From contig NZ_JBKBHT010000005.1 in the NCBI RefSeq assembly GCF_046297595.1, positions 145,179 to 177,178 on the forward strand: a DNA stretch of 32,000 nt, given 5' to 3'. The position numbers were made by a program, and so were the translations under genes. Shown here in pieces: positions 26,378 to 30,922 of the stretch (position 1 is its first letter; each line of letters begins with the position of its first letter). The notes under the pieces were generated by a model. That model was not told where the DNA came from. It made no database searches and saw only the letters and a program-made list of their open reading frames with translations. This DNA comes from Ferrovibrio sp. (GTDB lineage: Bacteria; Pseudomonadota; Alphaproteobacteria; Ferrovibrionales; Ferrovibrionaceae).

Positions 26378-26628
26378 GATGGGTCTCCTTCGGTCGGGGG
26401 AAATTCGCGCGTGAGCAGGTCGCGCAGCATGTCGGCGACCGTGACGCCGCGCCGGAATGCCGCGATCTTGATGCGCCCGCGCAATTCGGAGGTGACGTCG
26501 ATGGTCAATCGCGCCGAGAACACGGCGGCGTCCGGGCCGCGCGCAGGCGGCGTCCCTGACGACTTGATCCAGTGTTCAGCGTCGCCGGGCCGGGCGGCGA
26601 AGCCGCGTTTCTGAGACGGCCCGGTCAT
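26374..26628 (-). CDS. small ribbon-helix-helix protein, probable ParG-type centromere-binding partner of ParA
   Basis: 84 aa from ATG 26628 (ATGA overlap with the parA stop). C-terminal RHH pattern ARLTIDVTSELRGRIKIAAFRRGVTVADMLRDLL. Confidence 0.6.
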   Translation of the reverse strand: MTGPSQKRGFAARPGDAEHWIKSSGTPPARGPDAAVFSARLTIDVTSELRGRIKIAAFRRGVTVADMLRDLLTREFPPTEGDPS

Positions 26629-27262
26629 AATCCGAGCCTCCCGACCTCGGCGCAAAGTGCGGCGATCTCGCGCGCGGCCGGGCTGTCGTCGTCGACCTCC
26701 GACACGAGGCGTCCGGACTGCGCCGTATCGGCGAAGGCGACGCGCTGGCCGATGGTGGATGCCAGCACCGGCGGATCGTGATCGGCGAGCGTCTCGGCTG
26801 TTTCGCGGGCGATGACGGTTCGCGCACCGCATCGGTTCAGCACGAAGCGGGCCGTGAGCTGCGGACGATAGATGCGTGCCTCACTGAGCAGTGCCAGCAT
26901 CTCGGCCGAGGCCAGCCGTCGAATGGCGATGGCTGCACCGGGATCAGGATGAGATCGGCGGCGAGCAATGCGGAACGCATCAGCCCGGCGACGCGGGGCG
27001 GCCCGTCGATGACGATGTGATCGGCGTCGCGCGCCAGCTCCGGCGCTTCGCGATGGAGCGTATCGCGCGCCAGGCCGACGACGCCGAACAGGCGCGGAAG
27101 GCGCTCGCGTGCCCTTTGTTGCGACCAGTCGAGCGCCGAGCCTTGCGGGTCGGCGTCGATCACGGTGACGCGCTGACCGCGTCTCGCCCATTCGCCGGCA
27201 AGGTGCAGCGCCAGTGTCGTCTTGCCGACGCCGCCCTTCTGATTGAGGAACGCGACGATCAT
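26625..27262 (-). pseudogene. parA: ParA-family partition ATPase with a 1-nt deletion frameshift
   Basis: N-part (27262 to about 26912) has the deviant Walker A NQKGGVGKTT and ...LILIPVQPSPFDGW. Homology continues in another frame as (A)SAEMLALLSEARIYRPQLTARFVLNRC...TIGQRVAFADTAQSGRLV. TGG-CCT at 26914-26909 would be TGG-GCC-TCG if one G (top-strand C) were restored. Confidence 0.85.
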
Positions 27263-27473: not shown

Positions 27474-28355
27474 TCACAGCTTATCCCCAGAGCGAGTGTT
27501 GGAACGGCGACGTCGCGGCATGCCGAGCGGCGCCGGATCGGTCGGTACGAAGGAAAGGCGTTCGGGGCCGCTGGCCGGCTGCTCGATGGTCAGCCGGTAA
27601 CCGGGCAGCGCCTGGCGGCGGACGATGTCGCGCAGGTCGTAGGCGAAGTGCTTGAGCGGCGAGAGCGAGCCGGACTTGGCGTGGAGGTGGATGAAATCGA
27701 AGCTCCAGCCGAACTCCTGGCGGCCGCCATGCTTGCGCACGAGCCGGTAGAGCCAGCGTTCGAGCCCGCCCGTGAGATCGAAGTAGGCGCGGTCGATCGT
27801 CAGTACGAGCGCGTCGTCGAGGACCGCGGCGTAGAACCAGTCGGGTACGATCAGCTCGAGGCCAAGGGGCCGTCCTCGGCTGTCGGCTTTCTCCTTCCAC
27901 TCGTTGATCCAGGAGAAGCGGTGCATCCGTCGCTCGGTGGGCTGGCGGATCGATGTGGCGATCGTGGTTGATTGTAGGCGGTCGAGCGCGGCCTTGAGGC
28001 GGTCGTAGTCGCGTAGCGACACGCCGCGGCCGATGAAGTTCAGGATCTCATACGGAGTGGTCCCCATGAGCCGCGACGGGCGTAGGCCGGCGTCGCGCGC
28101 TTCGACGATCTGGGAGGCTGCCCAGATCAGCACGTCCGCGTCCCAGATGGTCGCCATGCCATGCTCGGGGACGGCTTCGACGCGGATGACGATCGAGCCC
28201 GCCTTGAAGTCGATCGGCGCCAGGCGCTTCGATTTGGCGAGCGAGAAGAACGGATAGGCCATGAGGTCCTGCGCATCTCGCGGCGCGAGGTCGCCGGGCA
28301 GCGCTCGGAAGAGATCGAGCTGCTCGCGTTCGCTACTGTGATGGCGGGACGACAT
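27474..28355 (-). CDS. repA: replication initiator protein A (RPA family)
   Basis: 293 aa. N-terminal EQLDLFRALPGDLAPRDAQDLMAYPFFSLAKSKRLAPIDF is the RPA-family signature. Confidence 0.88.
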   Translation of the reverse strand: MSSRHHSSEREQLDLFRALPGDLAPRDAQDLMAYPFFSLAKSKRLAPIDFKAGSIVIRVEAVPEHGMATIWDADVLIWAASQIVEARDAGLRPSRLMGTTPYEILNFIGRGVSLRDYDRLKAALDRLQSTTIATSIRQPTERRMHRFSWINEWKEKADSRGRPLGLELIVPDWFYAAVLDDALVLTIDRAYFDLTGGLERWLYRLVRKHGGRQEFGWSFDFIHLHAKSGSLSPLKHFAYDLRDIVRRQALPGYRLTIEQPASGPERLSFVPTDPAPLGMPRRRRSNTRSGDKL

Positions 28356-28366
28356 ACCGGCACGTC

Positions 28367-28648
28367 TCAGCGCGCGTGGCGGCCGGATTGGACCGGCGCC
28401 GTCGGTTCATGGCGCTTGGCGGGAAGAACGGCGCCGCGGGGATCCGACGTGGATGTGACGGCGCCCCGATCGGCCCAGGCCTGCAGGTCGTCGATGGCGT
28501 AGACGACACGGCCGCCGAGCTTGCGATAGGCCGGGCCAGTCCCATAGGTCCGGTGCTTTTCCAGCGTGCGGCCGGAGAGACCTAGAAATCGGGCGGCTTC
28601 AGGAGTGCGTAGAAAGCGCGGCGGCAAGCCGGCGAGGTTGGCGGACAT
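28367..28648 (-). CDS. excisionase/AlpA-type helix-turn-helix protein (HTH_17); candidate recombination directionality factor or regulator
   Basis: 93 aa. FLRTPEAARFLGLSGRTLEKHRTYGTGPAYRKLGGRVVYAIDDLQAWA is the MerR-like excisionase-family HTH. Stop lies 11 nt before the repA ATG. Confidence 0.8.
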   Translation of the reverse strand: MSANLAGLPPRFLRTPEAARFLGLSGRTLEKHRTYGTGPAYRKLGGRVVYAIDDLQAWADRGAVTSTSDPRGAVLPAKRHEPTAPVQSGRHAR

Positions 28649-28782
28649 GATCGGGCCTCCGGGGTGTTCGTTGAGGCCGCTGGCGATCAGCGGCGGGCGA
28701 AGGCCACGGTGGCGAAGAGCTGCCGTCTGGGGGGATGGTGAAGATTGAGGGGGCTATTTCGCACCCCCCTGGATAGGCTCCG

Positions 28783-29551
28783 TCAGCGCCGTCTGCGCCG
28801 ACGCAACAGGTCACGGTAGCCGCCATCGACCATGGCGAGGCCATCGCGAACGAGGCGAATGGTGGAATCACGGAGCGCCGATGTTTTCCAGGAGTCGGAG
28901 GCAACGCGGGACACGCCGAACATCACCTCGGCGATCTCCCGGTAGGTTGCGCGGCAAGCGCGGCCGTCGAAGGCCCGCAGCATGTGACGGAGGCGCTGCC
29001 GGCGCTGAAGCGTCACGCGCAGATCGGCGGGCGGAGGCGGCGCTTGGAGCCCGCCCCAAATGCGCGAGATGGCCTCGATCCGGTCTGGTGCATCAGTGTC
29101 CAGCGGGACGACCGCGGCTAGTGGCTGGTCGGGACCAATGCCGCCGAGCAACACGACATGGACTGCGTCGGCGCCGTCGCCATGAATTGCGTGGAGTTCG
29201 TGCGCGCTGCGGCGCGTTACGTTCGGGTCAAGCGCGGGCAGTGGTGCGCCGGCGGAGCCAAGGGATGGCGACGCGATCAGCAGAACCTTTCCAAGGTCGG
29301 CCTCCGTCGTCCAGTGAACGGGTTCCTCGATGGCGCTGTGGCTTGGGTGGGCAGGGAAATTGCAACCCCCAGCGCAGGCGGAACGACGCGGTCGCCTGCT
29401 CTGGGTCATCCATCTCTTTCAATGCTTTTGCATAGTCGCGCTGGTAGTCGACATTGCGGCGCAAGCACTCCCACGCCAGGTCGGAAATGCCGAGATCGTC
29501 GAAATAGTCGTAGCTGGTCGAAGCTCGCCACTGCGATGGGTCCGGCGCCAT
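28783..29551 (-). CDS. FseA-like transfer/excision activator (DUF6499 N-domain + DUF2285 C-domain) requiring a +1 frameshift; 255-aa fusion predicted
   Basis: Frame a runs from ATG 29551 (AGGAGG 6 nt upstream) to the Phe codon 29359-29357. The +1 frame runs from CCU 29355-29353 to TGA 28785-28783. See the first finding. Confidence 0.7.
29351..29362 (-). promoter_or_regulatory. candidate +1 slippery site CAA-UUU-CCC-UGC
   Basis: This is where protein-like sequence switches from frame a to frame b. UUU to UUC re-pairing is possible. Confidence 0.55.
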
Positions 29552-29579
29552 CGATTACCTCCTGGCTCACATGGTTCAT

Positions 29580-29596
29580 GTATCCGGGCCGGATAC
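29580..29596. promoter_or_regulatory. palindrome GTATCCGG-G-CCGGATAC upstream of the FseA-like gene
   Basis: Perfect 8-bp arms with a 1-nt centre, 29-45 bp upstream of ATG 29551. The loop is too short for an RNA hairpin, so a dimeric-protein operator is more likely. Confidence 0.4.
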
Positions 29597-29671
29597 GATT
29601 GCCGGTTGAGCTGGATCAGGGAAGACCCGGAAAAAGCGCCGCGTGATCGCTGCGGTGCATCGCGGACCCGT

Positions 29672-29935
29672 TCAGTGATGGCCGCGCCGAAGCAGGTCGC
29701 GATAACCGTGTTCGGTCATCCATCGGGCGCGCAGGAGATGGCATTCATGGATGTGCCGGGCGCGCTCGGGATCATCTCTGGGATCAATGCCGAACAGAAT
29801 GGTAACCACTTCGCACCAGTCCGCTCCCTCGGCATCGGCATCGAGCAGGCGAACGTAGAGCTTCAAATGCTTGATGTCGTAGTCGGTCAGCGACGCGCCT
29901 CGGGGCGGTTCGTCAAGAAAATCCGGCGCGGTCAC
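29672..29935 (-). CDS. single-domain DUF2285 protein (QseM-like candidate anti-activator)
   Basis: 87 aa, GTG start with GGGGGA 6 nt upstream. It aligns by eye with the C-terminus of the FseA-like protein: L..LD....GA...E(I/V)....FG ... GYRDLLRR. Confidence 0.7.
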   Translation of the reverse strand: MTAPDFLDEPPRGASLTDYDIKHLKLYVRLLDADAEGADWCEVVTILFGIDPRDDPERARHIHECHLLRARWMTEHGYRDLLRRGHH

Positions 29936-30067
29936 GATGGGTCCCCCGACACATCAATGGCGACAGCCATTCGATTCCGAGTCGATTTTATCGAAGTTTT
30001 GAATTGTCGTAAGCTGCGCGAGAAGACATCGCGTGATGCAGCGTAGACATCGCTGCGGGTCGTGCAA

Positions 30068-30301
30068 TCAATCTTCGTCGGCGCTCTGCCGCTCGGTCCG
30101 TTCGAAAAACGCGACCGGATCGATTTCAAGCACGATCGCCAGCTTTTCCAGCATATCGATCGTCGCGGCGTGCTGTTCCCGCTCAAGCATGCCGACATAG
30201 TTGCGATTGATCTCGGCACGATCGGCAAGTTCCTCCTGCGACAAGCCCTTGGCGTGTCTCAGTCGACGCAAATTTCTGGCGACAAGCTCCCGCAATCTCA
30301 T
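30068..30301 (-). CDS. XRE-family HTH regulator (QseC / C-protein-like)
   Basis: 77 aa. LRRLRHAKGLSQEELADRAEINRNYVGMLEREQHAATIDMLEKLAIVLEIDP is a canonical Cro/C1 HTH. Confidence 0.85.
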   Translation of the reverse strand: MRLRELVARNLRRLRHAKGLSQEELADRAEINRNYVGMLEREQHAATIDMLEKLAIVLEIDPVAFFERTERQSADED

Positions 30302-30336
30302 GCGGAGAGGTCGCCGTTTCCCCTAATATACTGCCA

Positions 30337-30350
30337 CCTAGTAAACTAGG
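30337..30350. promoter_or_regulatory. palindrome CCTAGT-AA-ACTAGG upstream of the XRE gene (candidate auto-operator)
   Basis: Perfect 6-bp arms, 36-49 bp upstream of ATG 30301. A TATATT -10-like hexamer (minus strand, 30330-30325) follows. No SD lies close to the ATG. Confidence 0.4.
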
Positions 30351-30441
30351 GATTCGTACATGAGAAAAGGCGCGGTGTCATTTTTCCGGGATGATCGGGA
30401 GTTTCCGGCCGGATCGCGGACTGGATTCCCACAGGCGCGAT

Positions 30442-30467
30442 GCCCCGCCCGGCTGTCCGGGCGGGGC
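30442..30467 (-). terminator. GC-rich hairpin after DUF736 copy 2
   Basis: GCCCCGCCCGG-CTGT-CCGGGCGGGGC, an 11-bp perfect stem, 12 nt after the stop at 30480. Poor U tract. Confidence 0.55.
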
Positions 30468-30479
30468 GTTGCTGGCGGC

Positions 30480-30806
30480 TCAGTCGCCGTTGCGGCGGCT
30501 GGGGCGAGACCAGATGAGGCTGAAGCCTTCGCCTTCCTCGTCGTCGAAGAGGTTGGCGTAGATCGGAGCGTTGAAGCTCGGGTCGTCCAGCTTGAGGCCG
30601 AGATAATCGCGGCCCTCGTTGGAGCGCTTGGACCAGGCGGCGCCGATCTCGGCTCGGCCGACGAAGACGCGGTGGCTGGGAGCGTTCTCGCCGGTGGAGC
30701 GGGCGTCGGGGACGATGCGGACGTTCTTGGTCTGGACGCTGAGGGTGACGATTTCGCCGGTGAACTCGTTCGAGCCGGTCTTCTTGAAGGTGCCGATGGT
30801 CGCCAT
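30480..30806 (-). CDS. DUF736 domain protein (copy 2)
   Basis: 108 aa. MATIGTFKKTGSNEFTGEIVTL...APSHRV...EIGAAWSKRS.EGRDYLGLKLDDPSFNAPIYANLF...LIWSR. AAGGAGA SD. Confidence 0.88.
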   Translation of the reverse strand: MATIGTFKKTGSNEFTGEIVTLSVQTKNVRIVPDARSTGENAPSHRVFVGRAEIGAAWSKRSNEGRDYLGLKLDDPSFNAPIYANLFDDEEGEGFSLIWSRPSRRNGD

Positions 30807-30895
30807 GGGAAGTCTCCTTGATCACTGTCTTTCGAGCCCGCACCATTGCGGCCTCACATGAGAGATTTCCCGTCAAGGGGTGGTGAGATGAGCTG

Positions 30896-30922
30896 GGGCG
30901 CTCCGCCGGAAGCGGAGCGCCC
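30896..30922 (-). terminator. GC-rich hairpin after DUF736 copy 3
   Basis: GGGCGCTCCGC-CGGAA-GCGGAGCGCCC, an 11-bp perfect stem, 9 nt after the stop at 30932. Confidence 0.55.

Follow-up and report, generated by a model that had tools for sequence, protein, structure and literature searches.

A co-linear C protein, QseM-like antiactivator and FseA-type activator in a Ferrovibrio integrative and conjugative element, with a candidate read-through link

In the integrative and conjugative element (ICE) ICEMlSymR7A, qseC and qseM are divergent and the operators OL and OR are shared between them (PMC4755241, PMC8789080), as the initial annotation of the DNA analysed here had correctly stated. The QseC/QseM/FseA system is the best-understood bistable switch of ICE transfer in alphaproteobacteria, and the model of it comes from one element with divergent promoters and quorum sensing. 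In a 32,000-nucleotide stretch of Ferrovibrio sp. DNA (the window, by which we mean this whole stretch), the genes for an XRE regulator, an 87-residue DUF2285 protein and a frameshifted activator instead follow one another head-to-tail on the minus strand. How, then, could the regulator act on the antiactivator gene in this arrangement? With confidence a little above even, we propose that the locus is a co-linear version of the QseC/QseM/FseA switch that works without quorum sensing and in which a controller (C) protein feeds the antiactivator by read-through. The data presented here establish what the parts are, how they follow one another, and that there is an operator limited to a single site; they also show that no terminator-like structure is present and that the layout is widely conserved.

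Identity and arrangement of the genes

On re-reading, the open reading frame (ORF) coordinates, the minus strand, the 132-bp spacer and the three sequence features quoted in the initial annotation were all correct, and gene order and strand agree with its head-to-tail succession of XRE gene, DUF2285 gene and frameshifted activator gene. The core of the locus consists of the following features:

30301-30068, minus strand: XRE/controller-protein gene, 77 amino acids, HTH_3 (ORF and Pfam)
29936-30067, minus strand: XRE-qseM spacer, exactly 132 bp
29935-29672, minus strand: gene for a putative QseM-family single-domain DUF2285 antiactivator, 87 amino acids, GTG start (ORF, Pfam, PDB match and fold)
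29552-29671, minus strand: qseM-fseA spacer, 120 bp
29551-28783, minus strand: FseA-type activator gene in two frames (Pfam and sequence)

The sole Pfam match of the 87-residue protein was PF10074/DUF2285 (residues 9-83 of 87, E = 1.7e-6, above the curated cutoff), and the protein contains neither a DUF6499 domain nor the AWEFLRRN motif. It aligned without gaps to QseM (PDB 7UQT) over 78 residues (E = 1.8e-17). An AlphaFold2 model built on 23 homologues had a pLDDT of 85.7, and in a Foldseek search of the PDB 7UQT was the only significant match to this model (probability 1.00, TM 0.63, 48% identity). In QseM, substitution of R28, D31, R68 or W71 abolishes FseA binding or antiactivation, and Y18, D19, Y26, L29, L30, H65 and L66 are structural residues (PMC10359603). 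The former correspond to R29, D32, R69 and W72 in the 87-residue protein, the alignment being offset by one residue, and all of the latter are also kept; moreover, R29, R69 and W72 are invariant among the 23 homologues. The net charge of the protein is -4.9 versus +12.9 for the DUF2285 domain of the activator, which as a whole-charge proxy for an acidic, non-DNA-binding surface agrees with the published contrast between QseM and FseA. Among relatives of the gene, the same start codon alternates between GTG and ATG. In total, we conclude from sequence and modelled fold that the 87-residue protein is a QseM-family antiactivator, as the initial annotation had proposed. That proposal had started from the likeness of the protein to the C-terminal domain of the activator; the common Pfam family stands, but the direct similarity is weak (22% identity, E = 0.048), and paralogy of the two therefore rests on the common family together with the homology to QseM.

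The split activator gene matched PF20109/DUF6499 (E = 9.7e-24) and PF10074 (E = 4.5e-35). Its parts, and its candidate target downstream, are:

29551-29228, minus strand: DUF6499 frame of fseA
to 28783, minus strand: DUF2285 frame of fseA
about 29371-29356, minus strand: +1 shift site, UGGGGG and UUUC, with a G-rich WGL-coding stretch before UUUC
28765-28760 and 28742-28737, minus strand: FseA-box-like inverted hexamers GGTGCG and TTCACC upstream of the HTH_17 gene (position and pattern only)
28648-28367, minus strand: HTH_17 (RdfS/excisionase-like) gene, likely FseA target (Pfam HTH_17)

By its sequence, the gene has the hallmark of the FseA family, a +1 shift at UUUC that links DUF6499 to DUF2285. 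R37 of FseA, for which a salt bridge with QseM has been proposed (PMC10359603), and FseA Y19 are kept here as R32 and Y14. The hexamers upstream of the HTH_17 gene are conserved across L026-L086; they read GGTGCG-N17-TTCACC here and GGACAC-N16-TTGTCC in those of the loci with the other FseA type, and they resemble an FseA box in which half-site and FseA allele covary.

The XRE protein matched Pfam HTH_3 (E = 1.1e-12). Its best solved relative was QseC (PDB 9XZ9, E = 3.4e-13), followed by C.BclI, C.AhdI and C.Esp1396I, and it is 45% identical to QseC. In 20 related loci, a second XRE gene on the reverse strand (XRE2) encodes a protein far nearer to QseC (about 68% identity to 9XZ9, E = 4.7e-23), so that a true QseC co-exists there with an XRE protein of the window type. 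Because XRE2 is much closer to QseC and co-exists with the XRE clade of the window, we classify the XRE protein on sequence grounds as a restriction-modification-type C protein that is a paralogue, not an orthologue, of QseC. The window XRE protein represents a C-protein clade of its own, the genes of which, where they lie near qseM, are without exception on the same strand as qseM, and purifying selection on the XRE gene and its operators is clear in relatives.

The initial annotation had contrasted the head-to-tail order with a divergent switch. We compared synteny in two surveys. In a QseM-centred survey of genome samples of the class, order and phylum, 64 loci, including that of the window, were classified using an iterated C-protein hidden Markov model after removal of ORFs overlapping qseM. 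One locus was counted twice, because a C-protein gene is divergent there and an HTH_3 gene is on the same strand. The classes were:

28 loci: divergent C-protein gene directly upstream of qseM
9 loci: unrelated small HTH_3 gene ('MITARQ...') on the same strand
3 loci: C-protein gene on the same strand (the window, a congener and L125)
25 loci: no detected regulator

Thus, in about one fifth of the QseM loci sampled at large, a small HTH regulator lies just upstream on the same strand. In 27 loci fseA directly follows qseM, and 12 of these 27 have a same-strand regulator upstream of qseM. In an XRE-centred survey, 185,579 species genomes were scanned and 80 loci with close XRE relatives were found:

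39 loci: XRE then qseM on the same strand, with a gap of 69-256 bp (exactly 132 bp in 12)
20 loci: XRE, reverse-strand second XRE, qseM
8 loci: divergent, with an XRE merely 55-58% identical
13 loci: qseM not nearby

XRE and qseM were co-oriented in all 59 loci in which the window XRE clade was near qseM. The XRE gene, qseM and the XRE operators were intact in each of the 39 two-gene loci, and the genera with same-strand loci number more than 20, among them Caulobacter, Xanthobacter, Sphingomonas, Bradyrhizobium, Methylobacterium, Afipia and Novosphingobium. In total, these comparisons, which were made at the sequence level, indicate that the same-strand order is the dominant layout for the XRE clade of the window (39 of 80 loci being same-strand and two-gene) and is widespread in alphaproteobacteria; it is not rare. 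We found no description or functional study of this layout in the literature, although earlier published figures might already depict such a pair. Several C-protein families adjoin qseM homologues, and these loci are often rearranged (PMC8789080, PMC8627217).

The XRE protein tree was poorly resolved (77 columns), and we used only two of its clades, i.e. that of the three-gene loci, the core of which was well supported, and that of the divergent-type XREs, which was well supported. In this tree, the three-gene loci group as a single nested clade, apart from that of the divergent-type XREs. In the three-gene form (L046, L053, L055, L058-L065, L067-L070, L072, L073, L075, L078 and L085), the window-type XRE gene and a true qseC orthologue are convergent, and the latter is divergent from qseM, with two GGAAC-N4-GTTCC operators 21 nt upstream of qseC, facing qseM. 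From this sequence arrangement, the XRE promoter in three-gene loci would make antisense-qseC RNA. The unrelated HTH_3 protein ('MITARQ(S/T)RAARALL...', 83-92 amino acids) occupies the same-strand slot before qseM-fseA-HTH_17-repA in L002, L004, L005, L107, L108, L113, L116, L117 and L119. In L003, an antitoxin/PIN-toxin-like pair (925-1230 and 480-914) is found in the regulator slot immediately upstream of qseM.

Operators of the XRE gene and the spacer before qseM

A dual operator lies directly upstream of the XRE gene:

30350-30337, minus strand: OL, strong palindromic operator CCTAGT-TT-ACTAGG (putative; conservation and pattern match)
30334-30323, minus strand: OR, degenerate second operator GCAGTATATTAG, two mismatches to the operator pattern, conserved in the alignment
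30322-30302, minus strand: 21-nt block GGGAAACGGCGACCTCTCCGC, conserved in the alignment, presumed core promoter, the transcript being leaderless or having a short leader

The palindrome is the strong half of the dual operator CTAGTTTACTAG-GTGG-CAGTATATTAG at 30349-30323, in which the centres of OL and OR are 15 bp apart. OL exactly matches CTAGTWTACTRG. Each of the 58 related loci compared has the operator 12-mer 48-50 nt upstream of the XRE ATG, differing from CTAGTWTACTRG at no more than one position, and a weaker site follows after GTGG. Judged by this fixed position in 58 of 58 loci, the palindrome is beyond chance. A position-weight scan of the 58 loci (about 6 kb each) gave no further operator copy except one weak match in L072, 786 nt upstream of the XRE start. 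Similarly, the window holds no additional copy, and the operator occurs only once in the 4.0-Mb genome, where the single other match has two mismatches and is at control level.

The OL-GTGG-OR layout is also present in more distant XRE clades. The distance from OR to the ATG is 20-22 nt in C-protein clades of 52-58% identity, in which the intervening sequence is unrelated, and L059 has the same spacing before its QseC orthologue. In otherwise dissimilar C-protein clades (the window, L059, L087 and L089), the stretch of 21 nt separating OR from the start of the C gene has a loose common pattern, GGCnnCCTnTCGCc, and this pattern may be a core-promoter or 5'-end signal of leaderless C mRNAs. The QseC mRNA is leaderless in R7A (PMC8789080). 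If, by analogy, the XRE mRNA is leaderless as well, OL would be centred at -42.5 and OR at about -27.5, which is the geometry of C proteins that activate at low dose and repress at high dose; the one pointer to a leaderless XRE mRNA is the conserved 20-22-nt operator-to-ATG geometry. The designation of the XRE protein as a repressor was thus an assumption, the operator geometry resembling that of C proteins activating at low dose. A GANTC (CcrM-type methylation) site, GAATC, abuts OL (30351-30355), and GACTC and GAATC are present in the qseM-proximal spacer (29974-29983). The GANTC site beside OL is present in most two-gene loci; GAATA is found instead in three-gene loci.

The spacer between XRE and qseM contains the following elements:

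30056-30038, minus strand: weak hairpin after the XRE stop
30039-30027, minus strand: GCATCACGCGATG element
30013-30008, minus strand: -35-like CTTACG
29994-29982, minus strand: palindrome TCGAT-AAA-ATCGA
29990-29985, minus strand: -10-like TAAAAT, inside TCGAT-AAA-ATCGA
29971-29956, minus strand: AATGGC-N4-GCCATT (core ATGGC-TGTC-GCCAT, 29970-29957)
29947-29942, minus strand: ribosome-binding site GGGGGA of qseM

This spacer had been described as AT-rich; there is an enrichment, but it is modest (53% GC versus 58-65% nearby). A consensus promoter and terminator scan of 28300-30900 found nothing. The predicted fold of the spacer was at background (z -0.8 versus shuffles), and the best 44-nt hairpins had a median of -16.5 kcal/mol in XRE-qseM spacers versus -28 kcal/mol after DUF736 in 49 related loci. 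Judged by these folding predictions, a terminator-grade hairpin is absent between XRE and qseM. The weak hairpin after the XRE stop was rejected as a conserved RNA structure, its covariation not being above that of shuffles. The preceding transcription unit ends differently:

30806-30480, minus strand: DUF736 gene directly upstream of the XRE unit
30437-30472, minus strand: GC-rich hairpin 3' of the DUF736 gene, end of the preceding transcription unit (fold -34.9 kcal/mol, z -3.1)

The latter hairpin has an 11-bp GC stem and was detected as an inverted repeat.

The spacer between qseM and fseA, in which no strong RNA structure was predicted, contains:

29664-29657, minus strand: CGCGATGC
29650-29640, minus strand: GCGATCACGCG
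29596-29580, minus strand: palindrome GTATCCGG-C-CCGGATAC with perfect 8-bp arms, just upstream of the fseA ribosome-binding site

This palindrome is only partly conserved in close relatives and is stronger than OL. As it lies just beyond the region covered by the initial annotation, OL had been reported there as the only strong palindrome, which it is not. In either orientation, the 8-mer CG[CT]GATGC shows an enrichment of more than 10-fold at two fixed positions in 59 loci (L026-L086; window 30027-30039 and 29640-29664). The first position is 70-112 nt upstream of qseM, and the second, in the spacer between qseM and fseA, is about 100 nt upstream of fseA. Groups whose spacers cannot otherwise be aligned have this enrichment in common, and the 8-mer could be a shared cis-element for qseM and fseA.

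Proposed read-through and its alternatives

The spacer sequence is kept only among close relatives, and in some relatives the gap is just about 54-69 bp. Across the related loci, XRE remains 74-97% identical while QseM drops to 56% and FseA to about 30%; the backbone (DUF736, HTH_17, RepA) is 56-83% identical. Sequence comparison thus indicates that QseM and FseA diversify jointly as a cognate cassette. Because XRE is stable while QseM and FseA are swapped, the link between XRE and qseM cannot be a matched operator in the qseM promoter; the XRE module is portable, which fits coupling at the level of the promoter over coupling at the level of the operator. Moreover, since the spacer contains no C-protein site, the C protein would reach qseM only via transcription from its own promoter. 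By analogy with C-to-R operons, the C protein probably controls the supply of antiactivator by read-through, a coupling that the initial annotation had named as an example and with which the single operator site and the missing terminator-grade hairpin agree.

The following scheme combines these observations with steps that we infer: that the operators are occupied, in which direction regulation works, where transcription starts, that it reads through, and that QseM and FseA interact. The C protein would bind OL and OR directly upstream of its own gene, and nowhere else, and would autoregulate that promoter; by analogy with other C proteins, OL would serve for activation at low dose and OR for repression at high dose. 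The transcript would start at or near the XRE ATG, meet no real terminator, and run into qseM and possibly fseA. In this way, the C protein would set the supply of antiactivator as it sets that of the endonuclease in C-to-R operons, whereas R7A QseC represses the divergent qseM promoter. The QseM-like protein would then sequester FseA's DUF6499 domain by acting as a mimic of FseA's own DUF2285 domain. FseA would be made only after a rare +1 frameshift, and QseM would neutralise this small amount; FseA escaping QseM would activate the HTH_17/repA/transfer operon via the inverted hexamers upstream of HTH_17. In three-gene relatives, transcription from the XRE promoter would cross qseC in antisense on its way to qseM, paralleling the QseC2-controlled antisense-qseC promoter of R7A.

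Several observations weigh against this scheme. First, FseA F34, which contributes to QseM binding in R7A, is a Cys here. Second, a leaderless start would place the -10 region in sequence that is not sigma-70-like; should the true -10 be TATATT inside OR, both operators would repress and the XRE protein would be a plain autorepressor. Third, the spacer holds a plausible promoter, CTTACG-N17-TAAAAT, overlapped by a palindrome, and qseM may have its own regulated promoter. Fourth, the hairpin following the XRE stop has a 6-bp stem, paired in 87% of cells when relatives are compared, and might attenuate read-through. Finally, parA of the element is frameshifted. It is split over two overlapping frames with ORFs of 141 and 188 amino acids (window 26625-27262), either by a frameshift or by a sequencing error in this element copy, and because of it the copy may be decaying.

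The third point leads to the strongest competing explanation, which we regard as unlikely but deserving serious weight: the C protein would autoregulate itself only, qseM would be driven by CTTACG-N17-TAAAAT with another factor acting at TCGAT-AAA-ATCGA or GCATCACGCGATG, and the head-to-tail order would be a by-product of module shuffling without regulatory meaning. In its favour are the promoter-like pair with its 17-bp spacing and overlapping palindrome and the 8-mer enriched upstream of both qseM and fseA across unalignable spacers. Similarly, XRE and QseM/FseA evolve as separate modules, and qseC genes are often duplicated, replaced or pseudogenised (PMC8627217, PMC8789080). However, XRE and qseM are co-oriented in 59 of 59 loci of this XRE clade, and in 9 more loci small HTH_3 genes of an unrelated family are found at this same-strand position upstream of qseM. 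Moreover, some gaps are too short for a separate promoter, the consensus scan gave no promoter, and the XRE gene and its operators are under purifying selection.

It is improbable that the locus is instead a locked-off remnant in a decaying element, derived from a three-gene ancestor by loss of qseC and its operators. A true qseC does lie between XRE and qseM in 20 related loci, and the frameshifted parA would suit decay; the 3' part of the spacer also resembles the qseM-proximal region of three-gene loci, but marginally (score 36 versus a shuffled maximum of 35), and we do not rely on it. By contrast, in the XRE tree the three-gene loci are one nested clade while two-gene loci are scattered over the other lineages and over more than 20 genera, as would fit an ancestral or at least stably maintained form, and XRE, qseM and the XRE operators are intact in 39 of 39 two-gene loci. 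Finally, C proteins can act in trans between related cassettes and the genome has a second XRE homologue (52% identity) on another contig beside an integrase-like gene, but with the operator found once in 4.0 Mb and one QseM homologue in the genome, action of the XRE protein on a co-resident element or host gene rather than on its neighbours is very improbable.

If read-through from the C-protein promoter does supply the antiactivator, the sign and dynamics of control depart from the published model. Tentatively, and with more doubt than belief, we suggest that the co-linear C-to-qseM unit is a timer of sign opposite to the R7A switch. In a new recipient without C protein, the promoter would be weak, little QseM would be made and FseA would fire briefly, giving transitory derepression that would favour epidemic spread by fresh transconjugants. 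Through positive feedback, the C protein would then raise XRE-qseM transcription and lock the element silent, and rare collapse of this feedback would give a donor subpopulation. Bistability would thus arise from one C protein, without QseC, QseC2 or quorum sensing.

The components of the locus are known; their same-strand arrangement, though frequent in nature by sequence comparison, is uncharacterised. Across more than 20 genera, a large share of the related elements wire the same proteins in other ways, i.e. with a same-strand paralogous C protein, with an unrelated small HTH protein, or in the three-gene form with a convergent qseC. If the proposed coupling is true, it bears on when such elements, which often have catabolic or resistance cargo, become transfer-competent.

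The element and its relation to known systems

On the minus strand, the order from 31240 to 27474 is two DUF736 genes, XRE, spacer, DUF2285 gene, spacer, split DUF6499/DUF2285 gene, HTH_17 and repA. Further downstream are parA and genes for DUF2840, a DUF3363 relaxase and TraG, and then for TrbB, TrbE, TrbL, TrbG and TrbI. We conclude that the host element of the switch is a trb/DUF3363-relaxase ICE with the backbone type of ICEMlSymR7A and Tn4371-like elements. In the plasmid collection, no record spanned XRE and qseM together at the DNA level. The host genome has one QseM homologue. A second C-protein homologue (52% identity) is encoded on another contig of the same genome (L148, C2:96408-96599), where it adjoins an integrase-like gene and where no QseM homologue is nearby.

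The initial annotation had seen no traR/traI and no tra box. We detected no tra-box-like sequence across the 32-kb window and no autoinducer-binding (LuxR/TraR) domain in the 99.96%-complete genome, the control for the latter search being positive; the search for the LuxI family also gave zero matches, but its control was equally silent, which makes this zero uninformative. With no protein containing an autoinducer-binding domain in the genome, TraR as a second target of QseM has no counterpart here. QseM/FseA elements without quorum sensing are numerous according to the literature.

Compared with the QseC/QseC2-QseM-FseA-RdfS system of ICEMlSymR7A (PMC4755241, PMC8789080, PMC10359603), the window is alike in having a C-protein regulator, a single-domain DUF2285 antiactivator, a DUF6499-DUF2285 activator with a +1 frameshift, an HTH_17 target resembling a recombination directionality factor, the conjugation backbone, a dual operator just upstream of the C gene and the QseM-FseA interface residues. 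The operator-to-ATG spacing of the window C gene equals that of a QseC orthologue in a related locus. In R7A, fseA converges on qseM, qseC2 follows qseC, and an antisense-qseC promoter is controlled by QseC2. Here, by contrast, XRE, qseM, fseA and HTH_17 are co-linear, the genome has no TraR and the window no tra box, and there is no divergent promoter sharing operators, the DUF736 terminator hairpin lying upstream of the operators instead. The operator also differs, being CTAGT-N2-ACTAG here and GGAAC-N4-GTTCC for the QseC orthologues of related loci. By analogy with C-to-R operons, the sign of control over qseM is likely reversed.

The three-gene relatives (e.g. L059) have the same XRE clade, operator and position after DUF736 as the window. 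In these loci, as in the QseC2 arm of R7A, a second C protein would control a promoter that fires toward qseM and is also antisense to qseC; however, in three-gene loci the C gene is itself part of the antisense transcript, and R7A qseC2 instead diverges from the antisense promoter. The window is without qseC and so has no opposing arm.

Compared with the C-to-R operons of type II restriction-modification systems (C.PvuII, C.AhdI, C.Esp1396I, C.BclI), the downstream gene here encodes a conjugation antiactivator and not an endonuclease, the methyltransferase partner is absent, and a 132-bp spacer separates two genes that usually overlap or abut. Otherwise the two are alike: a small HTH_3 controller protein, a strong distal and a weak proximal palindromic operator with a GTG-containing spacer directly upstream of the C gene, and a downstream gene on the same strand that is controlled in those operons and would be controlled here.

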